Below, piece after piece: positions 6,342 to 22,232 of a stretch of 64,000 nucleotides of DNA (position 1 is the first letter of the stretch; each line of letters opens with the position of its first letter). The notes beneath the pieces are model-generated. The model made no database searches. It was not told the DNA's origin and was given only the letters and a program-made list of their open reading frames with translations. Location: the NCBI GenBank assembly GCA_028030915.1, contig GCA_028030915.1_4867.1, one strand, 5' to 3'. A program made the position numbers and the translations under genes. The DNA is from a phage.

Positions 6342-9300
6342 TTAGTTGATTTTAGCCGGCAAGGCTGGGACGTCTTCACCATCTAAGATGCGTCCGATGT
6401 TCTCCCCACCACGATACCCGACAGCGTTGGTGGTTCCGATGCGCATGATAGAACCCACGATACGTGCGTCGACGGAATCACGACCAAAGATAATGTCGAG
6501 TTCCTGCCCGTCTTCCGTTTTGTTGGTTCCATACATCACTTCCTGAACCGTCGTTTTCAGCTGGTTAGCAATAACCATCTTATCCGCTGCTGCCATCTCT
6601 ACCCGGTGTGTGATGTAGAATCGGACACACAGGCTATTGTACGCTAACGGCACCCCCTCAACACGAAAATCACCGTTGACTCGACCGTCCTTCGGCTCGT
6701 CACGTTTGAGAGCCAGCGCAGTCTTCCGACGTATACGGTCGTATTTACGAACCATCTCCGCCAAAGACGGGGTCATATCTTCAACCTCGCCGTGGTAAAC
6801 CACTTCGATTTTGTCGATAAACCCACGAACACCAGAGCGTGGTGCAAAGGAGCTTAACTCACGCAGCGTTTCCGCTGCTTCTTTACTGAACCCGCTCATA
6901 TCGCCGGTCAGGTTGTCGGTGAAGGTGCATAGAATTGAATCCACGTCTACGTGGTCCCCTTCTTTTACCATCTCCAACAGGTTCTGGGTAAACGTCATTG
7001 TGACTTCTTTGAGTTTGGTAACATCGGCTTCAGCCTTAGCAGCGAACCGCTCACTAATGGCGTTGGAGTCCTCAATTACTTCTTCCCCTTCAATCAAAGC
7101 GACAGTTGCCAGTATCCCGTTTTTAAAGCTGACCTGCGTTGGATCGTAGATGTCTGGTTCAAAGTGTTGTTCGTTGTACGTGATAACGGCACCGGCGGGG
7201 AGTTTATCTCCGCGCTTCCATTTCGTTACCAGGGTGTGTGGGTAGTAAGTCCCTTCGTGTGGACCGAACCAACGGCCCAGTGGGAAAGCTTCTTCCTCTC
7301 CGTCGTCGTATTTGATTTTAACGTGGTCGTTAAGAACCTCCACAATCTTGCCTGGTTTATCGATTACGCGTGCGTGCTTCACAGAAGTACGGTGTGCCAC
7401 GAACTTTTCTTGCTCGGTACGATACGGTGTGGTGGTTGCGCCAACACAACTGGTCGCAGAACCGAATTGAATCCCAACGAAGTTCTGACGCTTAGCATCG
7501 TCCATCAGGGTATCCGGCACCAAGCCATCAATAAATGACAGTGCCTCACCTGGCTTCAGTTTATCGAGGTCCTTTTTAAAGGTCGTGCCGTCCACGGTGT
7601 CGTAACGCGGATTGTTTGTTGCAAAGGCGGTGATACCTACGTCGCCGTTATCGACCGTGTTACCGGAGACAATCCCCAGGTCGCTCGGTTGGAATTCACG
7701 GGTACTGTAGACCATGGTTTTGCGGTTACGACCGCCTGTACCGCCCATGGTAACGACATCCTTTTCTTTGATGTTCTGTACCGGGTTTGCGCCAGGTGCC
7801 AGCAGAACAGACGGGTCGGAGTTAATTGCACCCCACACCATGTCCTGCGTCAACTCAAACTTACGATTCGAGTTAGGCGCGTTGTTGTAGTTACGCATCG
7901 CCCGCACCATCGCGGTGTAGATGTGATACGAAATACGTTGGTTCCCGATGAACATCATTTCGTCACCGTTAATTTCCGGTAACGTGTGGTCCGTCTGCAG
8001 CAGTTCGTTAGAACGCTCCAGTAAGCCGATAAAGGTTTCCGGCTCGCCCATTTTCCTGAGGATACGCGCGTGCATGTCATCAACAAATGCGGTCCGCATC
8101 AGTTTCAGCTCTTTGATGTAGCGAGGTGTTAGCCCATCTGCATCACGTAACAGGTTCAGATAAATGTCTTCCCGGTCAACTTCCGACTCGGTATACGTGG
8201 TAAAGTGTTTGATGTAACGGTCTAAGCCGTTGACAATCATCCTCTGTTGATCGTTCTCGCAGACAATTGCAATTTTCGCATCCTGGAGACGAATAATGGA
8301 GTCGAACTGACCTTTATCGATACGTTGTCCGACAGAGAGAACCTCGTAACTGATACCAAAGTGTTTCAACATCCCGGTTAACCCGAGATAGTACGCAAAC
8401 ACAAAGCCCAGCGAGATTGATTTGCCCATCAGTGACAGTTCGGTCATTTCTCGTGGAGCCTTAGAGGTGTCCACGCCAAAGACCTCGGCGAGTGTACCCA
8501 GTGGTTCGGTCTTATCCTTATCCACTCGATAAAGCTGGGAGTTTTTATCCATACCGACGATGACATGACTCCGCGGTTTCTTCGCCACAGGTACCAGCTC
8601 GACACGGTCCGCGTCTGCCAGTTGCCCTTCGTTAAAGAATGCCGCTTTCTGTTTAATGTCAAAGCTCCATTGGTACCCAATTGCGTTGAACGCTGCTACA
8701 CGACGCGCCACTTCGGTGTACTGACGCGGCAGTTTAGACAACGGATCGAACACATTCGCCAGTTTTGCATCAGTGATTTCGGTGTTCTTTGGATCGACCG
8801 CGCGAGTAATAATCGCGTTAGTGAGCCAACGTCCGTAATCATTGACGACTTTATCACTGCGACGGACAAAGTTCTTCCCGTAGGCAGTGGTTAACGCTAC
8901 AGTATCGTGGGACACTTTACGGATAGGAAGATCAACACGCTGACGACGCATTGTATATTCCACACCATTTGCAACCCAAGTACCGTCTTCGGTTAATGCA
9001 GGAATTGAGAAACGTACCGTGGTTGGTTCTCCGCCAATCGGCTGAATACGCAACGTGTGGTGTTCGATATTCCCGGTAACGGAAATCTCTTTCTCAACAG
9101 TGTGATTGTGAATCGCCAAACCGAGACGCTGAGATGACGCTACTGCCCCCAGAATATCTTTCGGGAAGATTTCCTGGTTGTACTGACGAATGATTTGGTC
9201 GGTGGTATTTTCCGCCCAGGCTTCATCCGTAACTAAGCGTTCAATCTTCTTAGGCTCGGCTTTAACTTCGAGTTTCTTCGGATCGATGGTCAGACCTTCG

Positions 9301-10547
9301 CCGTACGTCTCTTTAGGATTGTACGGGTTGGGTAAGTTTACGAAACGTTTAGAAGATTCGTTCAGGAACTGATACGCTTTGGCGGTGACGCGGCCCGCTT
9401 CTGCCAGGCGCTCAACTTCCTGTTTAATCACAGCATCGTGTGGGATGGTGCGTTCTACGACGATGGTGGTTGGTTTGACATCTTCTTTCGGCGCTTCGAT
9501 GACCAGATCTTCTTTCTCATCGAACTCATGATCGTTCAATATATCGTCAACGTTGTCGCTTTGTGTTGCTTCATCGTCGACGATATCGAGGCTTTCTTCC
9601 GGTTTGCTGGTAACAGATTCAACAACATCGTCGTCCTCTCCCAGATGTACGCGTTCGTCCCCTTCCGGTGTAACGAACTCGTCATCTTCGTAGTCGGTAG
9701 ACGGCGGTGTGGTCATCACCGTAGTCAGTGTACGGTAGAACATTCTGCCCATCTGCACGTCAGTCAAACGACCGCCGGCAGACTTACGCATTCTTTCAAT
9801 TACACCCATGTTCATGGATGTAAAACCACCGTTGTGTGTGAAGATAAAGTTCACACGTGACAGCTGGTTCATGTCCATACCGTCAAACAGTGTTGCTTGC
9901 TGATCGCCGTACACCCAACCGAACAACTCCAGTAACCACAGGAGATTAAAGTCCTTAAAGCGCTCCAGTTTGGTTTTAACACGATCGTTATACGTCATTT
10001 TAAAACGATCGAAAGAAGGCAGTACGTTACCCAGTTCGATGATGTAGTAGTTCTGACGCATGTACTCACGTGAGTCAGTTTTCATCTGGTTAGTTATCAG
10101 TAGCTGAATGTTGTGCAGACGTTCGTACCAGGACATCAGAGTATCAGGGTAGAAATAATGCGGCAGCATCGGGGTGTAGTTTTCGATGAGCAGCACTTTT
10201 GGATCGGAACGTACCACGCCGTCTTCAATCATGCGACGAATACGACGGTTGTTACGATGGTACTGGAAGATTTGACGTTCTTGGCCAACAACAGGTTTCT
10301 TACGCGGATGGCCAATAATGCCGTCTTCAGGTAGCTGGAAGTGATGGCGAATCATCGCCGGTTTTTCCAGCTGGCCAAAACACGGTGTAGTTAACGGTGG
10401 CGCTAAAACCACCTGGTCTAAATCGATGGTGTGGTAGATAGAACCACGTGGGAGCTGGAGCTTCTCCAGCGGGATAATACGCGGGCGACCGAACTCATCG
10501 GTCTTGCGCACGGTAAAGCGCTGGTTAAACTGTTTCAGAAAAATCAT
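6342..10547 (-). CDS. large protein (1401 aa); possibly second RNA polymerase large-subunit-like or virion protein, family not resolved
   Basis: Uninterrupted 4.2-kb ORF starting 19 nt downstream of the beta'-like gene; acidic low-complexity segment (DYEDDEFVTPEGDERVHLGEDDDVVESV); no canonical beta/beta' motif confirmed by eye. Confidence 0.75.
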   Translation of the reverse strand: MIFLKQFNQRFTVRKTDEFGRPRIIPLEKLQLPRGSIYHTIDLDQVVLAPPLTTPCFGQLEKPAMIRHHFQLPEDGIIGHPRKKPVVGQERQIFQYHRNNRRIRRMIEDGVVRSDPKVLLIENYTPMLPHYFYPDTLMSWYERLHNIQLLITNQMKTDSREYMRQNYYIIELGNVLPSFDRFKMTYNDRVKTKLERFKDFNLLWLLELFGWVYGDQQATLFDGMDMNQLSRVNFIFTHNGGFTSMNMGVIERMRKSAGGRLTDVQMGRMFYRTLTTVMTTPPSTDYEDDEFVTPEGDERVHLGEDDDVVESVTSKPEESLDIVDDEATQSDNVDDILNDHEFDEKEDLVIEAPKEDVKPTTIVVERTIPHDAVIKQEVERLAEAGRVTAKAYQFLNESSKRFVNLPNPYNPKETYGEGLTIDPKKLEVKAEPKKIERLVTDEAWAENTTDQIIRQYNQEIFPKDILGAVASSQRLGLAIHNHTVEKEISVTGNIEHHTLRIQPIGGEPTTVRFSIPALTEDGTWVANGVEYTMRRQRVDLPIRKVSHDTVALTTAYGKNFVRRSDKVVNDYGRWLTNAIITRAVDPKNTEITDAKLANVFDPLSKLPRQYTEVARRVAAFNAIGYQWSFDIKQKAAFFNEGQLADADRVELVPVAKKPRSHVIVGMDKNSQLYRVDKDKTEPLGTLAEVFGVDTSKAPREMTELSLMGKSISLGFVFAYYLGLTGMLKHFGISYEVLSVGQRIDKGQFDSIIRLQDAKIAIVCENDQQRMIVNGLDRYIKHFTTYTESEVDREDIYLNLLRDADGLTPRYIKELKLMRTAFVDDMHARILRKMGEPETFIGLLERSNELLQTDHTLPEINGDEMMFIGNQRISYHIYTAMVRAMRNYNNAPNSNRKFELTQDMVWGAINSDPSVLLAPGANPVQNIKEKDVVTMGGTGGRNRKTMVYSTREFQPSDLGIVSGNTVDNGDVGITAFATNNPRYDTVDGTTFKKDLDKLKPGEALSFIDGLVPDTLMDDAKRQNFVGIQFGSATSCVGATTTPYRTEQEKFVAHRTSVKHARVIDKPGKIVEVLNDHVKIKYDDGEEEAFPLGRWFGPHEGTYYPHTLVTKWKRGDKLPAGAVITYNEQHFEPDIYDPTQVSFKNGILATVALIEGEEVIEDSNAISERFAAKAEADVTKLKEVTMTFTQNLLEMVKEGDHVDVDSILCTFTDNLTGDMSGFSKEAAETLRELSSFAPRSGVRGFIDKIEVVYHGEVEDMTPSLAEMVRKYDRIRRKTALALKRDEPKDGRVNGDFRVEGVPLAYNSLCVRFYITHRVEMAAADKMVIANQLKTTVQEVMYGTNKTEDGQELDIIFGRDSVDARIVGSIMRIGTTNAVGYRGGENIGRILDGEDVPALPAKIN

Positions 10548-10565: not shown

Positions 10566-12179
10566 TCATTTCAACAGCGCAGCAGTCGTTCTTTTAATCA
10601 CGTTGTTAACCGGATTGATTTTGAAACTGCCGTCTGTTGCAAACCAGTAGTTTTTCGAACTGACCCACTTCCGATTTTCCTCGAGCGCTTCGGTTGACAT
10701 CGGGCAGTTTGCTGAGCCGGTGTCACCATCGTAGTCACCACCCAATCCACCTAATCGGGATGGATGTGGTGCCATGGATTCCACAAAGGTTTTCACGGTA
10801 CGGTCAGGGAAGCTAATTGCACCCTTCTCTTTTAACGTGACCCAATCGTCTTCCAGTTCATGCAAATAGAGGGAAGAGGTGGTGGTCTCCAATCTTATGG
10901 TCGAGGAGTAAGTCGAACCGCGTCCCGTAACCGGATAACGCGTGATGAACGAGAAGTAGTCATTCCAAATATCGTAACCTGACAAATAGAGGAGTTCTGC
11001 TAAGCTCAGTCCGCGGACAAGCTTACGGTCACGTCCTTCCGGCAGGTCTTCAATATCGTAAAAGATTTTGAAGCTGCGTTTGTCTTGGTAGATTAATGCC
11101 ACGTAATGGTCCGGATCAATCATCAGCGGTTTATGTCGAAGCTCGCGCGCTTCCATTCTGTTGATGAGTGTTTCGATGCCATCGTCGGTAGTGAAAAGGT
11201 CATACACCCGCCCGGAGACTTCCAGGAACTCACGCTTGAGTGTTTTGGTGTTAACGCCGTATAAGTTGCCGTCCCCTGCCCGGATGTTACTGAGGTAACG
11301 TTCACGGATGTGGTATTGAGCCACAGGCAGTAATGCCTTCAGGGTTTGGTACAAACCGATACGGGTATCCGTTGGACGAATCGCATCTTCGCGACCCATG
11401 ACCTTGGAACCGGTTGAGAATGAAGACAGTACGTTACGCGTACCGTTCATTAACTTACGTGACGTCACTTTACGACGTGCAAAACCACCTTTACCGTCTT
11501 GGATGTTGAAAAAGTACATCCAGATGTCATTAAAGGTTTGTTGGAGCTTCCAGCGAACCGGGTCAGTCAGTTCCGTTCGCGTACTGCGGTCGGGGATTGC
11601 ACGTGCCAGAGAAATCAGACGGCGGTAGAGTCCGCCAATCTCTTCTTCTTGGTCGCGGCCATCCTGACGAATGACCAAATCACGTAATCCCGCAGGCAGA
11701 ACCAGCACATAGCGGCTGAGACTGACCGGACGGAACTTATTGAAGAAATCGACTGTCTCGTCGCGACGCATTGATTCGTTGCGTCCTGGCGTCAGTTGTT
11801 CGTAGTAGCGTAGGAAGAAGTTGAAGCCGGTGTCTGCACCTTTATCACTGGGCAGAGCCGGCTCGAAATCTTTTTCTTTCTCATTCCAGATAGCGAATCG
11901 CTTCCCGGAACAGATTTCTTCGTACAGCTGTTTCAGCTGGAACAACGCCAAACAAACGGTCGGCGAAATGATATCCAGTTTGATATCAATGTACGAGAAC
12001 GTTGAGTCTCGTGCCTCGCTCCCTGTGAGGCCAAATATTTCAGTTGAATACAGTCCTTCAGGGTGAAAGTTTTTCGTCAGTCCCTGAAAGGTGTCTGTTG
12101 TTGTAACTGGTTTTAAATGCGACACCAGGGACTTGTTGACGTTTAACAAGTAAAAGTCAACCCAGTTTAGCTTTCTCAC
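10566..12179 (-). CDS. multisubunit RNA polymerase beta'-like subunit, N-terminal fragment
   Basis: 537 aa; GTG start at 12179 with aggag SD; motifs aligned by eye to bacterial beta' N-terminus: EIFG (beta' KIFGP region), VLVLPAGLRDLV (beta' VLPVLPPDLRP), and GGDYDGD about 65 residues from the C-terminus (beta' NADFDGD Mg-binding motif near residue 460). Confidence 0.7.
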   Translation of the reverse strand: MRKLNWVDFYLLNVNKSLVSHLKPVTTTDTFQGLTKNFHPEGLYSTEIFGLTGSEARDSTFSYIDIKLDIISPTVCLALFQLKQLYEEICSGKRFAIWNEKEKDFEPALPSDKGADTGFNFFLRYYEQLTPGRNESMRRDETVDFFNKFRPVSLSRYVLVLPAGLRDLVIRQDGRDQEEEIGGLYRRLISLARAIPDRSTRTELTDPVRWKLQQTFNDIWMYFFNIQDGKGGFARRKVTSRKLMNGTRNVLSSFSTGSKVMGREDAIRPTDTRIGLYQTLKALLPVAQYHIRERYLSNIRAGDGNLYGVNTKTLKREFLEVSGRVYDLFTTDDGIETLINRMEARELRHKPLMIDPDHYVALIYQDKRSFKIFYDIEDLPEGRDRKLVRGLSLAELLYLSGYDIWNDYFSFITRYPVTGRGSTYSSTIRLETTTSSLYLHELEDDWVTLKEKGAISFPDRTVKTFVESMAPHPSRLGGLGGDYDGDTGSANCPMSTEALEENRKWVSSKNYWFATDGSFKINPVNNVIKRTTAALLK

Positions 12180-12208
12180 TTTTAAGCTCCTGAATTGGAA
12201 GAAACATT

Positions 12209-15200
12209 ATGGCAAAAAGAGGCAAAGACGGTTTCGATGATATCGATTTAGATAGACTCGACGACTGGGATGATTTCGGTGAACCACCCCGTCCCAAAGA
12301 CGAGAAAAAACGAAGCCCGATACTCAGTACCCTGAATGTTGCCAGGAAGTCGGCGTTGTCAACTATCTGGCCAGAAGGGAAACGTGACCAAGTTATCCTC
12401 AAGGGGATGCCTAAGCCGGCAGCTGATGCATACGAGGGCTATCAGTCAGCGGCAGCTGCAGCAAAGGACATTTACGCCCATACGAAAGGGGAGCTTGAGA
12501 AGACCGAGCGCACGCTGAAGATGCAAGCACGCCAACTCGGTCCGACGATGAAGAAATACTTGCCGGATGCAGTTACTAAGCGCTTCGACAAGTGGTCAAA
12601 ATCTGACCAGTTGGATTACCAAAATTACGATCCTAATCAGGCGTTGATGGATCGTGAACTGGGCGACGTTTTCTCAGGTGTGCCAAAGGACGCCGAAGAA
12701 CAACGTCAGCTGCAGGACAGCATGGTAGAGGATAAGCTCCGCGACAGCATCAAAGAGATGCGTGCGGATGCAATGCACCAAACCATGATTGGGATGGCGA
12801 AAGACATTAACCTGCTAACCGGGTTAAGCCGCGGGGTATTCTTAAACATCGAGCGTAAGAAACTCGAACTGCAATACCGTACCCTGTTCGCCATTCAAGA
12901 CATCGTGAAGATGAAGCAGTCGGAGTTCGATCGTAACACGCCTGCTTTAGAAGCCATCGTGAAGAACACGGCGCTGCCAGACTACGCGAAGGAAGATTTC
13001 TCAGAAGTCCGTTGGGCAAACGTTAAACGCCAGGCTGCGGAATGGATGAACCCGTTGCGTTATGCTGACGGGTTTATGGACATGATTCGCGAAAATACCA
13101 AGAAGAAAATTTCTGGTATATTTGGCGAAGGTCGTGGTTTGTTAGAGTCTGTTCTCGGCATGGGTGTTGAAGACGATTTCGGCATGAGCGACAGCTCTTC
13201 GTTGACTGCCGAACGTCGCAAAACAAATGCTCGCGATAAAGCAACTGCATGGGGTAGCGGATTCCTTGCGAAGAAACTACTCGGCCCACAAATCGAGAAA
13301 CTCCAGAAATGGACTCGTGAGGAGATGGAGAAAAATCCAGAGGTCATGAAACGCCTGCAGAAGGGCGCGTTCACCTTTGGTAATCTTTCCTCTATCTCGA
13401 ACTCAGCCATCGCAGGCGAAACGCAAGGACCGTTGGCGGATTTGTTCCGGGTACTGAATGAACTCGGTATTGTCCAACCGTTAAACCGTGAGAAAGCCTT
13501 CCTTGATGAGCGTAATGGCGAAACGTTAAGCCGTTCGGCGAAATTTGACCGTAAAGCATATCTTAGCCTGGTTGAAGTTATTCCTGCCTGGCTGGCAGAG
13601 ATTAACAAATCTGTTCGTCGGGGTTATGGCGAACATGCCGATCTGGAATACGACATCACTAGTCGTGGGTTCGTAGACCGTAAAGTGGTCGGTAACCGCG
13701 TACGCAAAGCGGTTGCAAACGATGAGCAGCGCCTGCGTCTCCAAAATTCCATTAACAGCACTGTGGATTTTGTTGACCGTGGCAAAACGCTCTCGCAGAA
13801 GGATCGACAGCATCTTGCCGACTATATCGAGTCACGTGCCTCGCAGGGCCGCGCATTCGACGTAGAAGCGATTCTGAAAGACCCGATGCATCTTCATCGG
13901 TATATGCCAGGAAACGCCGCAGAACGCATTAAGGAAGCGTTACAGGGGCATTCAGACAGTCTTACTGGTGGTAGCAACGAATTAAGTAACGAGCTGGCCC
14001 GCAAAATCTCCACAGTGCAGTCATCTATCACCCAACGTCAGGCAATTATCGACGAGGCGGTGAATATTTACGGTGAGCGAGCATTGCGCGATGCGGGTAT
14101 CTTTAACTACGACGCGAAGAGTGACACTTTCGGCGTGGATAAAGACCTGTCCGATCCCTATACCTTGTTTAATGACTTGGCAATGGGTAAGACACGCAGC
14201 GGTCGTGCGTTGACTCGTGAGCAGGAGATTCAACGTAAGCTGCAAAACGGTTCGGCGTTAGGCGACTATCTGCGCCGAATGAACCAAGGGGCAAGTGGTG
14301 GTGCCGATGACACATCGTTGCCGCCGGCTTTACGTGGCGGTGGTAAAGGTCGCGGAATGTCGCCTCGGCAGTTAGCCGCAGTTCTCTACGGTGAAACCTC
14401 GACTAACTTTGTTGAATTGCTAAGCCAACGTAACCGTGGCGAAGAAGCACCACGGAATAACTTTGACGGCATCATCGAAGCGATTCGGGGTAATAACAAC
14501 AGTGACACCCTCCAGAAAATTCTGGAACACGTCAGAAGTATGGACGAAGAAGGGGTTCTCCTGGCTTCGTTAGCAGGGGGTGCTGGTTCTGGTGATGAAG
14601 AGATGGGACCACCTCGTCCTGGTGGTGGTAGCGGTGGCGGTAAACGCCGCCGTATTATCATCGGTGAGGATGGGCTTATTCGTCGTTGGGGCGGTGTGTT
14701 GTTCGACACTGCAGCAGGAATCGGTGGCTTTGCAAAACGTGGTGTTAAAGGTGCCTGGAATAAACTGAATCAGTTCGGTGGCTGGGCGCGCGGTAAAATC
14801 GCGGGGATGGGCGGCGGAGAAGGTCCTGGTTTCTTAACCCGGATGCGTGGCCTTATCAGCGGTAGTGTCCGTGGGGGCTTTGAAGCGGTAAGCTCTTTCG
14901 GTAAAGGATTGCTGGGTATCCGCGACGTTTACGATGACCACGGTAATGTTGTTCTGCAAGGTGCACGTCTGGAAGCTGGAGAATACTATCAGGTCATTGA
15001 TGGTAAAATGGTTCAGCTGAAAACGCTGGACGACATCAAACTGGGGAGTGATATTGTTGACTCCGCAGGTAACCTGATACTAGCGGCCGCTGACTTAGCC
15101 GCTGCGGGTAAACTCCGCTACTATAAAGGCGGGAAAATCCAAGCACTGACCCAAGGTCTGGCCAGTAAGATTGGCTTAGGCTTTAATAAGGTGGCTAAGC

Positions 15201-18200
15201 TACCGAAACGGTTCCTGGATTTCCTGTCACCGAAAGCGGGCAGCATCGTTGGTAAGATTAAGGACTGGCTGAACGAGATTCCGGAAGGCGAAGAAAAGAC
15301 ACGTCTCCAGAAAGCGTTCAACCGCGTAACGAGCTTACCGGGTAAAGTGCTCGGTTTTGCGAAACGTGGTGTCGACCGTCTGAAAGACATGATTACCGAC
15401 AACCCACTGACGCGTTGGTGGAAAGGCCGTAAAGATGGTGGGGGTGGTGGTTTCAGTATCTTCTCATCAACCGGCAAGAAAACCAACCACATCCTTATCC
15501 GTATCTATAAACTGTTGAACCAACGTTTACCGGGCGAACCGGAAGACGAAAGTTGGACAGAAGAAATGGAGAAGGGTGTCGGTGGCGGTGGTAGTACGAT
15601 CGGCCGTGCAGTTCGCGGGGCGTATAATCGTGCGAAATCGTCGTTGTCTGAACGTTTTGGTGGACGTTGGTCAAGAACAAAAGCGTTCTTTGGTCGTGGA
15701 CGTGACCGTCTGCGTGGTTGGTTCAGTGGTTTCCGAGGCCGGGCTGGGGATATGCTCGATGGGTATCGTGGAGCACGGCACGACATTGCTACACGCTACG
15801 AAGTTGAACGTCGGTTGGCTGGACGCGATGATGATGTCGCTGAATTCTATCGCAGCCATTTGAACGCGAAAGGTGGCCTTTCTGGTCGTAAAGTCTACGG
15901 TGACGCGAAGGACGACCTTGAGACCGCGCGCGATGCAGCAGGTCGGGTTATCAACAAAGGGAAGAACGCTGCCAAATCTGCAGGTGCAAGATTGTTTGAA
16001 CGCTTGGACCGAATGATTGGCTTGCAAGAGATGTCATGGTTTAACACCATGCGCGAATCAGTATCCCGCGCAGGCGGTGACGATGGCATCATCCGTACCA
16101 TGTTTGCGAAGTTCGGTAAACGTAACAAGCCACCTGAAAGTGATGAAAAACGCGACTACTTTAACTTCTTCAAACGTTGGCGTGAGAAACGTAAGGAGAA
16201 GAAAGAGAAAGCGCAGGGCTCCAAAGGGAAATCTGGCGGTCTGTGGGATATGGTGAAAGGCTTACCTATCATCGGTCCCATCGTCAGTATCTTGGGAACT
16301 GTGGGTAATATACTCGGTTCTATCACGAAATGGGGTGTGTTAAAACCCGTAGGTCTTTTAGGTAAGGCTGCGTGGAATGTTGGTAAGTTCGCAGTAACCC
16401 GTTTGGCGGCACCCGCGGTGTCCGCTGTGGCAACTGCGGCATCTGCCGTCGTGACAGCAGTGGGCTGGCCGGCAATTCTTATCGGTGGTGCGATCGCCGC
16501 GGCAGGTTACGCCGCGTACAAGATCGCAACGACTACCTATACCCAGTACCTGGATAAGATGCGTTTAGCTCAGTACGGTTTCCGTGATTACGATAAGTGG
16601 TCGTCGGATGACGGGGCGAAAGCGCGTTACTTAGAAGACGCATTGCGTGAGTATGTGTCTTACGCGGAAGATGGCCAAGCCAGTCTCCGTGGGCTAGGTG
16701 GAAAAGACGTTCAGAAGTTAGCTGAAGGGTTCGGTATTAACGTTGAGGAAAAAGGCGAGATGTTGGCCTTCCAAGCGTTTATGCTTCAGCGCTTTATTCC
16801 GATTTATCTCCGCTGGATTACGGCACTGAAATCAATGCCGAACAGTATCCAGTTGGCTGACGTCGGCGATGCTAAGAAAGTATCGAAAGAGGACATGCAG
16901 ACACTCTTCAACAAAATGAAGATGACTAAGGATGCAAAAGCGTTCTCTTCGTTAACAGACCCACGCAAAGTCAACCAAGGTTTCTTCTCGAAAGCCTGGG
17001 ACGTCGTAACCTTTACACCGAAGGAGTTTTTGAGCGGTGAAGAGGTTATGGAAGTGCAGAATGAAGTCGAGCGTGCAATCAAGTTCAGAATGGATGATAA
17101 GAAAGCACGTAAGTACGGAATGGCACCGGCCGTGGAGGGGATTAAGTCCGCGGGCGTTGATGAAGCTATCAACAAACTCGGACAGTTGGATAACGAACGT
17201 AACAAAAATCTGGCGAAGGTAGAAGGTTGGGAAGACGGAACAGAGCAGGTTCAGATTCAGGTAGACTGGAATGCGGTGCTCGACCAGAAAGACATGAATG
17301 CGATGGAGTCGGTACGTTGGAAGACTTATGGTTTTACCACCATCGACAACGCCACACGCACGTTGATTACGGTATTCGAGAAGAACGTCATCAAAGACAT
17401 CGACGTGAAAACCGCAAGCTATAAAGGTGACTGGAAGAAAGCTATCGCTTCGATGGTTCCAGACGCTATCGGCACACCGAAAGAAGATCGTTTGAAGCGG
17501 TGGTTCTTTGACCGCTTCTTACCGGTATTCATGACGTACTTGGTTGGGGTGAAACGCTACCTGCCAACAGCCGATCCGCTGAACTTGAAACTGACCGGCG
17601 GTTACCTGTACGAAATCAGTTTGATGATGTCAACAGCTTATAGCTTGAAAGGTGGTATAAGACAGTCGGTGTGGGAAGTGAATATCAACCCATTAGGGGG
17701 CGATGCTAACACGAACCCATCGTCTATCAAAGCCGAGCTGGAAACGCTGAAGCTGTTGTCAAAAGAAGCTGACCTTGCCGTGCGTAACATGATTAAAGCC
17801 ATTAAAAACAATGGCAAGCGTGCACGCTGGAAGGATCGTAACAAGAACCGCAGTTCTCTGGAAGTTACCGGTGAAGATGAAGAAGACTCGAACATCAGTT
17901 CGGGAGATTCTTTGTCATCTGACGGTGCTCGCGCCTCAGGCTACATTCCATCGGGTACGAGTGGTGGTGTGCCGGGTAACTTGGGTCAAGTCGTCGATGC
18001 GGTTGGTGGTGTGCGGAACTACGCTGCAATGACCACTGGTTCGTCTTCGATTAACCTGAGTGATGTGAAAGACGGTGATTATAAGTCACTGGCTGAAAAA
18101 TACCCGATAGAAATGTTGGGTAGAAAGGGTGCGTTGAACGTTCCGAATATCAAAGCATTGATTACCGATGCAGCGAACATGATGGGCGTGCCACCTGCAG

Positions 18201-19330
18201 TGGCGTTAGCAATGGCTAAGGCGGAGTCCGGATTTAACTACACCGCTAAAAACCCGTATGCTTCGGCATCTGGGTTGTTCCAGTTTGTTAACGGCACGTG
18301 GGACGGGATGATGAAGGGGTATTCGCGGAAGTTTGGTATTCCGCGTGTTAACCAAATGGACCCGTGGGCGAATGCTATATTGGGTGTACAGTTCATTCGT
18401 GACAACATCCAACAAGCACAACGTGACCTGGGCGGTAAAGCACCACCTCCAGCCGTGGCTTATCTGTACCACTTCCTGGGTGCAGGCGGCGGTAAGAAAT
18501 TCCTGGAAGCATGGAAGCGTAATCCGAATATGGCGGCATCGAGTGCTCCTGGGATTACATCCGCAATACTGAGAGGGAATGCCAACGTCTTCTACAGCAA
18601 CGGTCGTATACGTAGCGTAGACGGGGTTATTCAGGAACTGAACCGCCGCATGGGCGCAATTTCCGCCAACGAAGTCGCTGCCGATCCGAGCAAGACGAAG
18701 GATATGGTTGCAGGCTTGTCGCCTAATTCACCAACCAACCCGGCAGCAGCAATGGGTGCACCGGCCGCTAATGACCCGAGTCTGTCGCCAGCAGATAACC
18801 TGCCAGCAGATAATGCTAATCGTCGTGATGACGCATTGACGCAGAAAGGGGCCATGGCGGCACAAGATGCAATGGCTACCGCCGCAGGTAATGTAGGACC
18901 AGCAGCGCCTACACCAACCACAGGCGGTACCGGAACATCCGATGCCTCAACAACGGCCGAAACCGTAGCGTCGCAAGCTGCAGCAGAAGGATTGTCTGCG
19001 ACGGATGTTGCTAAAGTGAAAGCAGGCGCGGAAGCGCAGGTTAACGCAGCAGCTCGTCCAGTTGCCGCTCCAACTTCTGATGCTACAGCATCGACGCCAA
19101 CGCTGAATGGTGACCCGATAGATGTTCAGCAGCTCAAGGTACTGATTCAGTCTCGCGATTACTTGAAAGAGATTCGTGATATTTTGAAATCAAATCCAAG
19201 AGCGGCAAACGACACACGGGGTGGTAGTATCCAGCAAGCGGCAAATGTGCCTCCTCCGGGCTCAGCTGCACGTAGGCAGGAAATAACCCAACCGACACCG
19301 TCGTTAAACGTAAGTCGGAAAGCAAGCTAA
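12209..19330 (+). CDS. giant virion-associated protein (2373 aa) with lytic transglycosylase (SLT) domain
   Basis: 7.1-kb ORF; SLT-like motifs AMAKAESGFNYTAKNPYASASGLFQF...AYLYHFLGAGGG encoded around 18180-18500; glycine-rich tracts (GGGGG), many K/R, Ala/Pro/Thr-rich C-terminus. Resembles the giant transglycosylase-bearing inner-virion/tail proteins of jumbo phages (from memory, e.g. phiKZ gp181). Confidence 0.85.
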   Translation: MAKRGKDGFDDIDLDRLDDWDDFGEPPRPKDEKKRSPILSTLNVARKSALSTIWPEGKRDQVILKGMPKPAADAYEGYQSAAAAAKDIYAHTKGELEKTERTLKMQARQLGPTMKKYLPDAVTKRFDKWSKSDQLDYQNYDPNQALMDRELGDVFSGVPKDAEEQRQLQDSMVEDKLRDSIKEMRADAMHQTMIGMAKDINLLTGLSRGVFLNIERKKLELQYRTLFAIQDIVKMKQSEFDRNTPALEAIVKNTALPDYAKEDFSEVRWANVKRQAAEWMNPLRYADGFMDMIRENTKKKISGIFGEGRGLLESVLGMGVEDDFGMSDSSSLTAERRKTNARDKATAWGSGFLAKKLLGPQIEKLQKWTREEMEKNPEVMKRLQKGAFTFGNLSSISNSAIAGETQGPLADLFRVLNELGIVQPLNREKAFLDERNGETLSRSAKFDRKAYLSLVEVIPAWLAEINKSVRRGYGEHADLEYDITSRGFVDRKVVGNRVRKAVANDEQRLRLQNSINSTVDFVDRGKTLSQKDRQHLADYIESRASQGRAFDVEAILKDPMHLHRYMPGNAAERIKEALQGHSDSLTGGSNELSNELARKISTVQSSITQRQAIIDEAVNIYGERALRDAGIFNYDAKSDTFGVDKDLSDPYTLFNDLAMGKTRSGRALTREQEIQRKLQNGSALGDYLRRMNQGASGGADDTSLPPALRGGGKGRGMSPRQLAAVLYGETSTNFVELLSQRNRGEEAPRNNFDGIIEAIRGNNNSDTLQKILEHVRSMDEEGVLLASLAGGAGSGDEEMGPPRPGGGSGGGKRRRIIIGEDGLIRRWGGVLFDTAAGIGGFAKRGVKGAWNKLNQFGGWARGKIAGMGGGEGPGFLTRMRGLISGSVRGGFEAVSSFGKGLLGIRDVYDDHGNVVLQGARLEAGEYYQVIDGKMVQLKTLDDIKLGSDIVDSAGNLILAAADLAAAGKLRYYKGGKIQALTQGLASKIGLGFNKVAKLPKRFLDFLSPKAGSIVGKIKDWLNEIPEGEEKTRLQKAFNRVTSLPGKVLGFAKRGVDRLKDMITDNPLTRWWKGRKDGGGGGFSIFSSTGKKTNHILIRIYKLLNQRLPGEPEDESWTEEMEKGVGGGGSTIGRAVRGAYNRAKSSLSERFGGRWSRTKAFFGRGRDRLRGWFSGFRGRAGDMLDGYRGARHDIATRYEVERRLAGRDDDVAEFYRSHLNAKGGLSGRKVYGDAKDDLETARDAAGRVINKGKNAAKSAGARLFERLDRMIGLQEMSWFNTMRESVSRAGGDDGIIRTMFAKFGKRNKPPESDEKRDYFNFFKRWREKRKEKKEKAQGSKGKSGGLWDMVKGLPIIGPIVSILGTVGNILGSITKWGVLKPVGLLGKAAWNVGKFAVTRLAAPAVSAVATAASAVVTAVGWPAILIGGAIAAAGYAAYKIATTTYTQYLDKMRLAQYGFRDYDKWSSDDGAKARYLEDALREYVSYAEDGQASLRGLGGKDVQKLAEGFGINVEEKGEMLAFQAFMLQRFIPIYLRWITALKSMPNSIQLADVGDAKKVSKEDMQTLFNKMKMTKDAKAFSSLTDPRKVNQGFFSKAWDVVTFTPKEFLSGEEVMEVQNEVERAIKFRMDDKKARKYGMAPAVEGIKSAGVDEAINKLGQLDNERNKNLAKVEGWEDGTEQVQIQVDWNAVLDQKDMNAMESVRWKTYGFTTIDNATRTLITVFEKNVIKDIDVKTASYKGDWKKAIASMVPDAIGTPKEDRLKRWFFDRFLPVFMTYLVGVKRYLPTADPLNLKLTGGYLYEISLMMSTAYSLKGGIRQSVWEVNINPLGGDANTNPSSIKAELETLKLLSKEADLAVRNMIKAIKNNGKRARWKDRNKNRSSLEVTGEDEEDSNISSGDSLSSDGARASGYIPSGTSGGVPGNLGQVVDAVGGVRNYAAMTTGSSSINLSDVKDGDYKSLAEKYPIEMLGRKGALNVPNIKALITDAANMMGVPPAVALAMAKAESGFNYTAKNPYASASGLFQFVNGTWDGMMKGYSRKFGIPRVNQMDPWANAILGVQFIRDNIQQAQRDLGGKAPPPAVAYLYHFLGAGGGKKFLEAWKRNPNMAASSAPGITSAILRGNANVFYSNGRIRSVDGVIQELNRRMGAISANEVAADPSKTKDMVAGLSPNSPTNPAAAMGAPAANDPSLSPADNLPADNANRRDDALTQKGAMAAQDAMATAAGNVGPAAPTPTTGGTGTSDASTTAETVASQAAAEGLSATDVAKVKAGAEAQVNAAARPVAAPTSDATASTPTLNGDPIDVQQLKVLIQSRDYLKEIRDILKSNPRAANDTRGGSIQQAANVPPPGSAARRQEITQPTPSLNVSRKAS

Positions 19331-19378
19331 TCGTAGGGGGTGGCAACACCCCCTAATCATCTTACAGAGAGGTTTTAC

Positions 19379-21601
19379 GTGGAAGCAAGACAACTAAAAG
19401 ATTCAGGATGGGTAACCGGCCTGTTTGGCGGTACAACCGCACAACGCGATGAGCGTTTCCTGGGTTTGCGTCGTTACTCTAACGCGATGCTCTCGTTTGA
19501 AGATACCACGATGGGTGGTTCGCAAGCGTTAAATGCGCCGCCGCAGTTTACGATGTTTGCTGATCCGAGTTCAACAGGTGCTTTTGCACAACCTGATGCA
19601 GGTCGTGGCTCGTACTCAAAGTACGTTAAAGGTCAAGACCAACGTGGTTCCTATCGTTTAGGGACTTTCTATTACGAAGCTATTAACCAAAACAGTTTTT
19701 ATCTTCATTGTCGTTTCGGTAAACCTCGATATATCGGGGTCGCTGCATTCTTCGCGAATATGTACGATTCCAACCTAGCGTATCTGGCACGCACAGGTGA
19801 CTACCCAGGTATGTTACGTGCGATGGGGACGTATGTTGCCGCCGCAGCAATATGGGCCGCAGTAGGCACGGTTGCCTTTGCGGTTATTCTGATTACGCCA
19901 CGTATGTTGAAGATGGTGCTGAATAAGCAGACTTCTCGCTACTACTACGTGAAACCGACAATGCACTTGTATCTGCGCGCTGTGCAGAATATGGTCAACA
20001 CCCAGTTAGTTTATCGCCGATTGGTACCAACGGGTGTGTTAGGGACTTTCCAGCTTGCTAACGCTGTAGATGGGTCTGAGAAAGGCGGTACTGCTAATAA
20101 GTACAACGGCGACCGCAAAGAGTGGTACTCCATGCTGCCAGAAATCTGGACAGCTGATGGTGAGTTCGATATCTATCGAATGATTAACCGCTACCAAACA
20201 TTAGCCAACTACCAGGCGAAAACCATCGATAAAATTCGTAAAGAGTCGAGTAACGAAGAGGACATGGCTCGACGTTTGCGAAACTTCTATCTGGAAGCGA
20301 CGTACTCAACAACCCATTTGGAGAAAGCTGCGCAGTACGAGGTTTCTTTACGTAACCTTGAATACGTAGCCAAAGCCGGTAAAGGGTACGATGCCGGTTT
20401 TGAAAACGTCGATAACAAAGAAGACGAACTGGTAGCAGGGATGAACGGAAGCATTCAGGATGCTCAGTCACAAGGAGGTAAAGCTGAAAACTTCGAAAAC
20501 GAAGGTGACGCGCAACGTAAAGAGCTTGCCGAGCGTATGGCACAGGTTGAAAAGAACCAGGCTCAGGTTGCTAAAAGTCAGACCGAAGCAAACTCAATGG
20601 ATGAGAATAATCTCGACATTGGGAAGATTGAAAACTGGATGGACCAAGGCCAGAAAGAATCTGTCGGTAGCGTCTTCAAAGACTATATCGATATTTTAGA
20701 AGGCGCTATGGATGGGTTAACTTCGAACATCGCTTCGGAGATACGCAATGGTTCGCAGTGGATTACTTGGCGTGTTGATGGACGTGATACCGTAGGGCGT
20801 TCGTTCTCCAACACCACCAAAGAACCTGAAATCTCTGGCACGGTTAACTCCGCCACACAGAAAGCACGTTCTTTGGAAGTAAACCTCTCTGGTGGTAAGA
20901 CTGGTTTCGACGCAGTCGATGGTCTCATTACTGGGTTGAAGTCCGCCTTTACAGGCGCACTCGATTTCTTGCATTTATCAGGGATTATGTCGCTGTACAA
21001 CTCGTCAGTGATTGACTTCCCGGAAGTGTGGGACTCCTCAGACACCTCAGGTGACGATATCTCGCTAAGCATTCCCCTTCGCTGTTGGTCGGGTAACGAC
21101 TTAGATGTGTTCCAGGATCTGATTGTCCCTTTGTCGTTCTGGTTAGCGGCAGTTTGCCCGTTAGCAACCGGTAAACAATCGTTTACGCACCCGTTCTATC
21201 TGGAGTGTTATTCTCGTGGTCGTTATTCCATGCGTAATGCCATGGTAACTAACTTGAGTCTCCAGTTTGGTACAGGTGGGTTAGGGTGGCGTGCAGACGG
21301 CCTGCCGTTGTCGTGTGATATTCAGGTAACCATTCGCGACCTGTCACGCGTTATGTACATGCCGATTGTAACTGATATTGGTGTGTTTGATGATGATAAC
21401 AAGTTCAGTGAATTTATGTCTGTGTTGGGTGCTGCCACGCTTTACGAGCGTACCAACGGTATCGCGCAGGCTAAAATCAACGCGTCTATCTGGGCGCAGA
21501 ACTGGGCAAGTGCCTGGTCACAGGGCAGCATCGTCAACGCCGCGTTAGATATCATACCGGCACGACAAATCGCGAACATTTTCCTACCACAAGCGCGATA
21601 G
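19379..21601 (+). CDS. hypothetical protein, probable virion protein (about 740 aa)
   Basis: ORF track 19340-21601; preferred start is GTG 19379 preceded by agagagg SD, because the 19340 start lies inside a hairpin; immediately downstream of giant gene. Confidence 0.65.
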   Translation: MEARQLKDSGWVTGLFGGTTAQRDERFLGLRRYSNAMLSFEDTTMGGSQALNAPPQFTMFADPSSTGAFAQPDAGRGSYSKYVKGQDQRGSYRLGTFYYEAINQNSFYLHCRFGKPRYIGVAAFFANMYDSNLAYLARTGDYPGMLRAMGTYVAAAAIWAAVGTVAFAVILITPRMLKMVLNKQTSRYYYVKPTMHLYLRAVQNMVNTQLVYRRLVPTGVLGTFQLANAVDGSEKGGTANKYNGDRKEWYSMLPEIWTADGEFDIYRMINRYQTLANYQAKTIDKIRKESSNEEDMARRLRNFYLEATYSTTHLEKAAQYEVSLRNLEYVAKAGKGYDAGFENVDNKEDELVAGMNGSIQDAQSQGGKAENFENEGDAQRKELAERMAQVEKNQAQVAKSQTEANSMDENNLDIGKIENWMDQGQKESVGSVFKDYIDILEGAMDGLTSNIASEIRNGSQWITWRVDGRDTVGRSFSNTTKEPEISGTVNSATQKARSLEVNLSGGKTGFDAVDGLITGLKSAFTGALDFLHLSGIMSLYNSSVIDFPEVWDSSDTSGDDISLSIPLRCWSGNDLDVFQDLIVPLSFWLAAVCPLATGKQSFTHPFYLECYSRGRYSMRNAMVTNLSLQFGTGGLGWRADGLPLSCDIQVTIRDLSRVMYMPIVTDIGVFDDDNKFSEFMSVLGAATLYERTNGIAQAKINASIWAQNWASAWSQGSIVNAALDIIPARQIANIFLPQAR

Positions 21602-21623: not shown

Positions 21624-22175
21624 ATGAGTTTATTTGGAAAGACCGCAAAAGAGTTGGTTTACGATCTTATCGTGTCCCAGAATCCCGGACTGACTGGTAA
21701 GGGCGTGACCATCGATAAATTGTCGTTCGGTAACCCGTCGCACATCACCGCAGCCGATCCTGACCCAGAACAGTACACCAGACTGAACACCAGTCTCGAT
21801 GTTTCTGGTATCGTTGAGAAAGGTACGTTTGGTAAGATGGGTCTTACTTACCGTCGACTGGACGTAGCCCACCTGTTTGAAAACGTGGTGCTGTCTGTGG
21901 ACGGTAGTAGCGCCAATACAGCCGCCGACCTCGTTCCGTTGTTACAGGCCAAGTACAATTGGTTGATTGATGCGAGCGAGATTTATGCGACGGAGTCAAT
22001 GACGTCTTCCACGAAACACAATTTGCGTTTCAATGGAAAGTCACTGGCGTGGACGGGTACGGTTGAAGTTTATTTGACCGAAGTTCCGAGCGATGGTGTC
22101 GATATCAGTAAACTGATCACCGTTACTGAGTTGAACGGTCTGGTTTATGACATCTCCGACATGACTCAAGCGTAA
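21624..22175 (+). CDS. hypothetical protein (183 aa)
   Basis: ORF track; SD gaggt upstream; followed by bidirectional terminator. Confidence 0.6.
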   Translation: MSLFGKTAKELVYDLIVSQNPGLTGKGVTIDKLSFGNPSHITAADPDPEQYTRLNTSLDVSGIVEKGTFGKMGLTYRRLDVAHLFENVVLSVDGSSANTAADLVPLLQAKYNWLIDASEIYATESMTSSTKHNLRFNGKSLAWTGTVEVYLTEVPSDGVDISKLITVTELNGLVYDISDMTQA

Positions 22176-22176
22176 C

Positions 22177-22232
22177 AAAAAAATAAGTAACGCGAGTACC
22201 CCTAACGGGGTACTCGTTTGCTTTTATTTTTA
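22177..22232. terminator. bidirectional intrinsic terminator between convergent genes
   Basis: caaaaaaataagtaa cgcgagtacccc taac ggggtactcg tttgcttttatttt: 10-bp stem flanked by A-tract on one side and T-tract on the other. Confidence 0.65.

Follow-up and report, generated by a model that had tools for sequence, protein, structure and literature searches.

A giant protein of the gp239/gp181 family with a predicted lytic transglycosylase domain, a putative tail tape measure, in an SPN3US-like jumbo phage

RESULTS

One uninterrupted gene of 7.1 kb

The 64,000-nucleotide (nt) stretch of phage DNA analyzed here (hereafter, the window; contig GCA_028030915.1_4867.1 of GenBank assembly GCA_028030915.1) belongs, judged by its sequence, to a Salmonella jumbo myophage of the SPN3US type (genus Seoulvirus). 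Its subject here is a giant gene on the plus strand, flanked by genes for virion RNA polymerase (RNAP) subunits on one side and for a baseplate protein homologue on the other (Table 1). Comparative analysis established the integrity, orthology, and synteny of this gene, the fold and catalytic motif of the SLT-type lytic transglycosylase domain that it encodes, and the conservation of its length and of a hydrophobic segment. The open reading frame (ORF) starts with ATG, runs without interruption, and exceeds in length every other one listed for the window's first 30 kb. Its product of 2373 amino acids (aa) has a computed mass of 259.1 kDa and an isoelectric point of 9.5.

Table 1. Features of the giant gene, its protein product, and the surrounding locus (positions in the window)
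Feature	Position	Strand	Evidence
Giant gene	12209..19330	+	2373-aa, 259.1-kDa orthologue of SPN3US gp239, homologue of phiKZ gp181
N-terminal helical region, aa 1-690	12209..14278	+	∼70% helix in AlphaFold2, high conservation across 30 homologues
Variable basic Gly-rich middle, aa 691-1343	14279..16237	+	Gly 16%, Lys+Arg 18%, low alignment occupancy and identity
Small beta domain, aa ∼905-960	14921-15088	+	AlphaFold2; aa 897-958 aligns to phiKZ gp181
Hydrophobic Ala/Gly/Val-rich segments, aa 1344-1373 and 1394-1441	16238..16531	+	Kyte-Doolittle, conservation
Conserved alpha-helical domain, aa 1439-1849	16523..17755	+	AlphaFold2 pLDDT ∼80-90, high conservation, aligns to phiKZ gp181
Ser/Gly/acidic flexible linker, aa 1850-1928	17756..17992	+	pLDDT <50 over aa 1853-1923, poorly conserved
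SLT (GH23) lytic transglycosylase domain, aa 1929-2169	17993..18715	+	Pfam core aa 1984-2072
Ala/Pro/Thr-rich C-terminal tail, aa 2170-2373	18716..19327	+	Composition, variable sequence, AlphaFold2 helices of moderate confidence
Divergent virion RNAP subunit genes	6342-10547 and 10566-12179	-	ORFs, PHROG 2986, SPN3US/phiKZ annotation
gp182 homologue (next gene)	19340..21601	+	BLASTP to phiKZ gp182 E=1e-40, PHROG 3181
Third gene of plus-strand unit	21624..22175	+	ORF; SPN3US annotation "virion structural protein"
Putative bidirectional GC-rich hairpin terminator	22192..22217	.	Perfect 11-bp stem, 7 GC pairs, T run on both strands

Relative to its SPN3US counterpart, the gene carries 202 nt differences, which fall overwhelmingly at third codon positions (180, with 20 at first and 2 at second positions), and codon comparison counted 187 synonymous and 13 nonsynonymous changes. 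In 61 phage records, a match extended over 80% or more of the query, and the homologue set, reduced to 93 cluster representatives, consists of proteins of 2094 to 2862 aa (median, 2404) with identities down to 22%. Because synonymous changes dominate and all 93 homologues keep to this size range, the ORF is one gene under purifying selection in its frame. A preceding sequence-only reading of the locus, made without database searches, had proposed a single 7.1-kb ORF and dismissed the antisense ORFs across it. Both proposals were confirmed: the ORF itself, the 61 full-length matches, and the codon pattern reveal no frameshift that splits the gene, and the antisense ORFs (93 to 182 aa) are spurious, since they lack annotation in SPN3US and are incompatible with the third-position substitution pattern.

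Two deposited records of close relatives behave differently. In SEGD1 (KU726251), the only record that breaks the match, the alignment falls into three pieces with two annotated coding sequences, yet identity is 99.4%; its split therefore most likely arose during sequencing or assembly. The SPFM20 protein (P0052, 2364 aa) yielded a BLASTP alignment over only 3% although it scored 1058 bits. Frameshift or assembly errors in these database entries seem to explain both oddities.

Self-BLAST of the giant protein and three of its homologues found no internal repeats. The protein is devoid of Cys over its 2373 aa, and every homologue of 2100 to 2860 aa contains 0 to 6 Cys residues. Such depletion would fit a protein that stays unfolded or extended and crosses the oxidizing periplasm.

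Orthology with SPN3US gp239 and homology with phiKZ gp181

The giant protein is, with virtual certainty, orthologous to SPN3US gp239 (YP_009153533) and homologous to phiKZ gp181. It differs from gp239 by 13 substitutions and one Gly indel over 2373 aa, and the two genes have the same neighbors in the same orientation. The sole length difference is a single additional Gly codon, in frame, within the GGG tract around residue 805 (nt 14621-14623), and the published mass of gp239 equals that computed here, whereas the DNA has diverged by ∼2%, nearly all of it synonymous. The gp239 proteins of SPN3US-like phages are 99.2 to 99.7% identical to the giant protein, the nearest listed record being phage SPLA3 (99.7% protein and 98.1% DNA identity). 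The PHROG 3201 profile matched the protein over its full length (E=0, 2460 bits), and its length, collinearity, and locus all place it in the phiKZ gp181/SPN3US gp239 family that this profile represents. BLASTP against phiKZ gp181 (NP_803747, 2237 aa) returned collinear pieces at residues 12-267, 438-603, 897-958, and 1383-2148, the last with E=1e-29. Likeness to gp181 thus extends over the N terminus, the middle, the hydrophobic segment, the alpha-helical domain, and the SLT domain, and the flanking genes are the same. In contrast, overall identity is only ∼24%, gp181 is 136 aa shorter, the C-terminal tails are unalignable, and the Gly-rich middle is poorly conserved.

SPN3US gp239 has been named the tail tape-measure protein and was found in purified virions by mass spectrometry; it was undetected in tailless, DNA-filled particles of a gp64 amber mutant and depleted more than 10-fold in the tail-tube mutant 255(am107) (PMC5105663, PMC10052503, PMC5694885). 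The lists in the text-form supplements of the SPN3US papers do not contain gp239. We conclude that the giant protein very probably resides in the tail.

A predicted lytic transglycosylase near the C terminus

SLT is the only significant Pfam domain in the giant protein (PF01464 at residues 1984-2072; E=2.1e-9, 37.4 bits versus a cutoff of 21.3 bits), and its assignment leaves very little room for doubt. The two motifs from which an SLT core had been read in the bare sequence, AESGFNY and SGLFQF, are both present, and the formal search backs that call with a match above threshold. The family motifs AES, GLFQF, and AYLYHFLGAG, the last two corresponding to the GLxQ and AYxxG-like signatures, are accompanied by a lysozyme-like alpha fold. 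A phmmer search of PDB sequences retrieved a sole match, the phiKZ endolysin gp144 (3BKH, 9XPS; E=2.5e-15). With the family profile, this match rose to E=3.5e-56, and MltC and MltE were added. By alignment, the catalytic residues are Glu2006 (nt 18224-18226) and Ser2007 (nt 18227-18229), which pair with the catalytic Glu115-Ser of gp144 (PDB 3BKH). This Glu-Ser dyad is invariant in a 31-sequence alignment of the family, and Glu-Ser, GLFQF, and YLxHFxG are kept in nearly all homologues, including those that lack a precomputed Pfam match. NCBIfam returned matches of the lytic transglycosylase type only, all of them below threshold. Together, these features predict a functional-looking lytic transglycosylase, an enzyme of the class that cleaves MurNAc-GlcNAc bonds to yield 1,6-anhydroMurNAc.

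The nearest known enzymes are gp144 (3BKH) and the GH23/SLT lytic transglycosylases Slt70, MltE, MltC, and phi6 P5. Gp144 differs in being a soluble enzyme of 260 aa that carries a peptidoglycan-binding domain at its N terminus, whereas the SLT domain described here is embedded in a structural protein. The C-terminal domain of phiKZ gp181 is muralytic according to the account in PMC5380687, which quotes 60,000 U/mg on permeabilized Pseudomonas aeruginosa and cites Briers 2008.

The wall-lysing module is exchanged within the family, as seen in homologues P0040, P0043, P0044, P0093, P0083, P0085, and P0076. In some metagenomic homologues, GH19 (PF00182) replaces SLT at the same relative position (residues 2261-2320 of 2550 in P0040), an M23 peptidase is present in addition in P0083 and a VanY domain together with a Peptidase_S74 motif in P0085, and P0076 lacks the catalytic Glu. 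Exchange of this module at near-constant total length points to peptidoglycan degradation as the property under selection.

Domain anatomy of the giant protein

Domain boundaries were drawn from the 31-sequence FFT-NS-2 alignment and from two AlphaFold2 models based on that alignment, which leave out residues 1201-1339; model confidence is given as the predicted local distance difference test (pLDDT) score. AlphaFold2 predicts 64% helix, at low confidence, over residues 1-1200. Long helices occupy residues 37-420 of the N-terminal region, including several of 35 to 49 residues between positions 69 and 375, and are followed by a compact helical domain at residues ∼440-690 (pLDDT 80 to 90). Foldseek found no match to the N-terminal model in the PDB (best E, 0.75). 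Within this region, the motif KNTALPDYAKE (residues 252-262; nt 12962-12994) is invariant or nearly so in homologues down to ∼20% identity. AlphaFold2 confidence around it is low (pLDDT <50 over residues 245-267). The motif may be a conserved contact site, e.g., with the tail terminator or the tube.

The middle region holds all Gly tracts but one and is modeled with low pLDDT except at residues 905-960. Gly makes up 16.3% of residues ∼700-1350 versus 7.1% of the first 700, every 40-aa window between positions 772 and 907 contains at least 30% Gly, and a GGGGG run lies at residues 1077-1081. It is in this Gly-rich region that the alignment shows most indels among homologues. Lys plus Arg amount to ∼16% throughout the protein. 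Hence, of the ∼2000 residues of Gly tracts and basic residues described in the sequence-only reading, the basic composition held, while the Gly tracts proved to lie in residues ∼700-1350.

Kyte-Doolittle windows reach at least 1.6 at residues 1351-1372 and 1399-1433, and an equivalent hydrophobic segment lies at relative position 0.53 to 0.64 in ∼85% of the 93 homologues. In most of them it falls somewhere between residues ∼1212 and ∼1650. From their sequence, both segments are candidate membrane-inserting helices. In the PDB search with the family profile, the hydrophobic region also matched the type III secretion system translocator AopB (3WXX; E=0.009, not significant); this match is probably compositional, yet it points toward a membrane-inserting role. 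For the conserved alpha-helical domain that follows, searches of Pfam, NCBIfam, and the PDB gave no match specific to it. Around the linker, residues 1881-1980 are composed of 16% Ser and 15% Gly. AlphaFold2 places helices of the C-terminal tail at residues ∼2200-2227, 2246-2281, and 2304-2328, and the composition of residues 2151-2373 (Ala 21.5%, Pro 9.4%, and Thr 9.0%) bears out the Ala/Pro/Thr-rich tail noted at first sight of the sequence.

The surrounding locus

The locus has an order common to SPN3US and phiKZ: head protease, two head proteins, two virion RNAP genes, the giant gene, and the gp182 homologue. The virion RNAP genes beside the giant gene mirror phiKZ gp178/gp180, which lie beside gp181 on the opposite strand. 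The starts of the giant gene and of the divergent virion RNAP subunit gene lie only 29 bp apart (12180-12208), so the promoters of both directions must overlap or sit within coding sequence. A sigma-70 promoter scan was uninformative (5 sites versus 9.9 expected), and these phages use their own RNAPs.

Downstream, the start of the gp182 homologue is ambiguous. The first in-frame GTG, at 19340, lies 10 nt past the stop codon of the giant gene; the alternative start in the SPN3US annotation is a GTG at 19379 preceded by GAGAGG. In the 2026 cryo-electron microscopy atlas of phiKZ (PMC13250141), gp182 is a hexameric ring that acts as a spacer, with the tube initiator on one side and the baseplate hub on the other. 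A comparison of the product of the third gene with phiKZ gp184 found no similarity. The hairpin at 22192-22217 sits where the plus-strand three-gene unit meets minus-strand genes and, by its sequence, looks like a bidirectional terminator that closes the unit. GC skew is positive over 10 to 22 kb only, coinciding with the plus-strand unit of the giant gene. No tRNA or tmRNA genes were found across the whole window (1-64000).

DISCUSSION

A probable tail-internal protein and possible ruler

The giant protein is likely a tail-internal protein that serves as tube scaffold or ruler and as an expelled wall-cutting enzyme; for the ruler role taken by itself, we lean toward accepting it. The protein is very long and predicted to be mainly helical, and its gene is co-oriented with the baseplate spacer gene, as befits a tape measure. 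Two further traits are ruler-like: length is kept at 2094 to 2862 aa while identity drops to 22%, and the hydrophobic segment is kept at ∼0.6 of the length, as in other tape-measure proteins. Classical tape-measure proteins span ∼1.5 Å per residue, and at this value residues 1-1340 would cover 201 nm. The phiKZ tail measures 2000 Å and its tube has an unusually wide lumen of 68 Å (PMC13250141), and the tails of SPFM phages are 160 to 200 nm long (PMC6614189). Negative-stain tails of SPFM phages with equal tblastn scores (99.5%, 4153 bits) have been recorded as 140, 160, and 200 nm (PMC6614189). Published tail lengths from transmission electron microscopy are therefore too noisy for a test of the ruler, since phages with like giant proteins appear with tails of 140 to 200 nm.

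A few copies of the giant protein would lie inside the lumen of the tail tube, with the helical N-terminal ∼1340 residues acting as scaffold and ruler for polymerization of the ∼200-nm tube, and its gene would be cotranscribed with that of the baseplate spacer ring. Upon sheath contraction, the protein would be expelled ahead of the DNA. Its C-terminal module would then reach the periplasm, where the hydrophobic segments may insert into or perturb the inner membrane and the GH23 lytic transglycosylase (Glu2006) would cut glycan strands locally, allowing passage of the wide tube and the DNA.

Several observations weigh against this interpretation. The AlphaFold2 model of the N-terminal part is of low confidence, with a mean pLDDT of 59. 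At full length the protein would span 356 nm, i.e., ∼1.7 times too long for a ∼200-nm tail. Conversely, tails of 160 to 200 nm leave 0.7 to 0.85 Å per residue instead of ∼1.5 Å, and therefore at most part of the protein could be a ruler. Pfam and NCBIfam searches returned no tape-measure family, the only matches at E<=0.1 being of the SLT type, and the significant PDB matches of the family profile are likewise lytic transglycosylases only. Tail-assembly-chaperone genes with a programmed frameshift customarily precede a tape-measure gene; none lie upstream here, where the divergent RNAP gene, 29 bp away, occupies that place instead. The tape-measure label in the SPN3US papers, and with it the ruler function, is an assignment and not an experiment. 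The 2026 phiKZ atlas, which names 40 proteins, is silent on gp181 and on a tape measure (PMC13250141), so that no structure places the protein in the lumen. Neither a 2026 jumbo-phage review nor two transposon sequencing (Tn-seq) preprints contain anything on gp181, and the literature searched yielded no genetic experiments relating protein length to tail length. Finally, muralytic activity is reported for the phiKZ gp181 domain only, and not for the giant protein itself.

The combination of a tail ruler and a wall-degrading enzyme has precedents. T5 Pb2 and mycobacteriophage TM4 Tmp are reportedly tape-measure proteins with muralytic domains, as work by Boulanger in 2008 and by Piuri and Hatfull in 2006 is said to describe. 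These proteins and the tape-measure proteins of staphylococcal and lactococcal phages resemble the giant protein in being long helical tail proteins with hydrophobic segments and a wall-degrading module for entry toward the C terminus. T5 Pb2 is also listed in PMC5380687. Unlike them, the giant protein belongs to a contractile-tail jumbo phage, is two to three times longer, spans ∼0.8 rather than 1.5 Å per residue, and lacks adjacent chaperone genes; a sequence relationship with them is undetectable.

Alternative roles

The excess length of the protein could also mean that it is no ruler at all, but a tail-stored "ejectosome" that is expelled, cuts peptidoglycan, and builds a conduit across the envelope, while another factor sets tail length. 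A length that exceeds the needs of a simple ruler ∼1.7-fold, with neither a tape-measure family match nor chaperone genes, speaks for such a role. So do the large conserved domains at residues 440-690 and 1439-1849, which are not helical rods, the conserved hydrophobic segments, the lysin domain, and the 68-Å lumen of the phiKZ tube, wide enough that it could house folded domains. However, tight length conservation in very divergent homologues is predicted for a ruler and not required of a cargo. To our knowledge, the contractile-tail phages studied so far all use a tape-measure protein, and the SPN3US papers name no other candidate for that function (PMC5105663, PMC10052503). On balance, we consider a purely ejected conduit unlikely.

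An older model of phiKZ gp181 casts it as a device under the baseplate analogous to T4 gp5. Reviews describe it as a "needle-like cell-puncturing device, putative trimer" (PMC5380687) and another paper as the "putative cell-puncturing protein" (PMC5468394), and the presence of a lysin, as in T4 gp5, is in keeping with these descriptions. The phiKZ atlas, however, identifies gp164 as the spike, gp163.1 as the tip, gp101 as the hub, and gp182 as the spacer, with no gp181 among them (PMC13250141). Moreover, the AlphaFold2 models are mainly helical, without an oligonucleotide/oligosaccharide-binding (OB) fold or a beta-helix, and no fold match to spike proteins was found. The puncturing role is very improbable and has largely been refuted already by the phiKZ baseplate structure.

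A tail fiber, as the protein is annotated in SPN3US, phiKZ, many other records, and PHROG 3201, is hardly credible, because the protein has no fiber-like domains or beta-rich repeats but predicted helices and an enzymatic SLT domain, the phiKZ fibers are gp131/133/134/135, and the Peptidase_S74 chaperone-of-endosialidase motif occurs in one distant homologue only (P0085); the label appears to be a propagated annotation. There is just as little chance that the protein is packaged in the head like T7 gp16, an internal core protein that itself bears an SLT domain, given that gp239 escaped detection in the tailless gp64-mutant heads and is depleted in 255(am107), and that the lytic transglycosylase domain is N-terminal in the head-stored gp16 but near the C terminus in the tail-associated gp239. 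The sequence-only reading had grouped the giant protein with ejection or tape-measure-like proteins that digest peptidoglycan during entry; the tape-measure likeness and the wall digestion agree with the gp239 assignment and the gp181 muralytic activity, whereas ejection from the head does not survive the tail location.

Implications for the gp181/gp239 family

Most of what is described here is real but ordinary, and adds little to the SPN3US and phiKZ publications: the gene, the virion and tail location, the tape-measure name, and the lysin activity of the phiKZ homologue are all already published. Beyond these, our analysis contributes minor descriptive points, namely, the domain boundaries, the conserved hydrophobic segment, the swaps of the lysin module, and the depletion of cysteine. 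For the gp181/gp239 family at large, "tail fiber protein", the name widely given in GenBank and PHROG, is a wrong label.

Worth attention, too, are the conserved hydrophobic segment and the 410-aa alpha-helical domain, as parts of a protein that must cross the envelope before the genome of a nucleus-forming jumbo phage. A speculative and rather doubtful extension is that only the N-terminal ∼1340 residues measure the tail, and that the C-terminal ∼1000 residues, with the hydrophobic hairpin, the alpha-helical domain, SLT, and the Ala/Pro/Thr tail as its parts, would be a dedicated translocon expelled from the wide tube, inserting into the inner membrane as a conduit for the DNA and the ejected virion RNAP. 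Formation of the early phage infection vesicle, which nucleus-forming jumbo phages derive from membrane, might even start from such a translocon.

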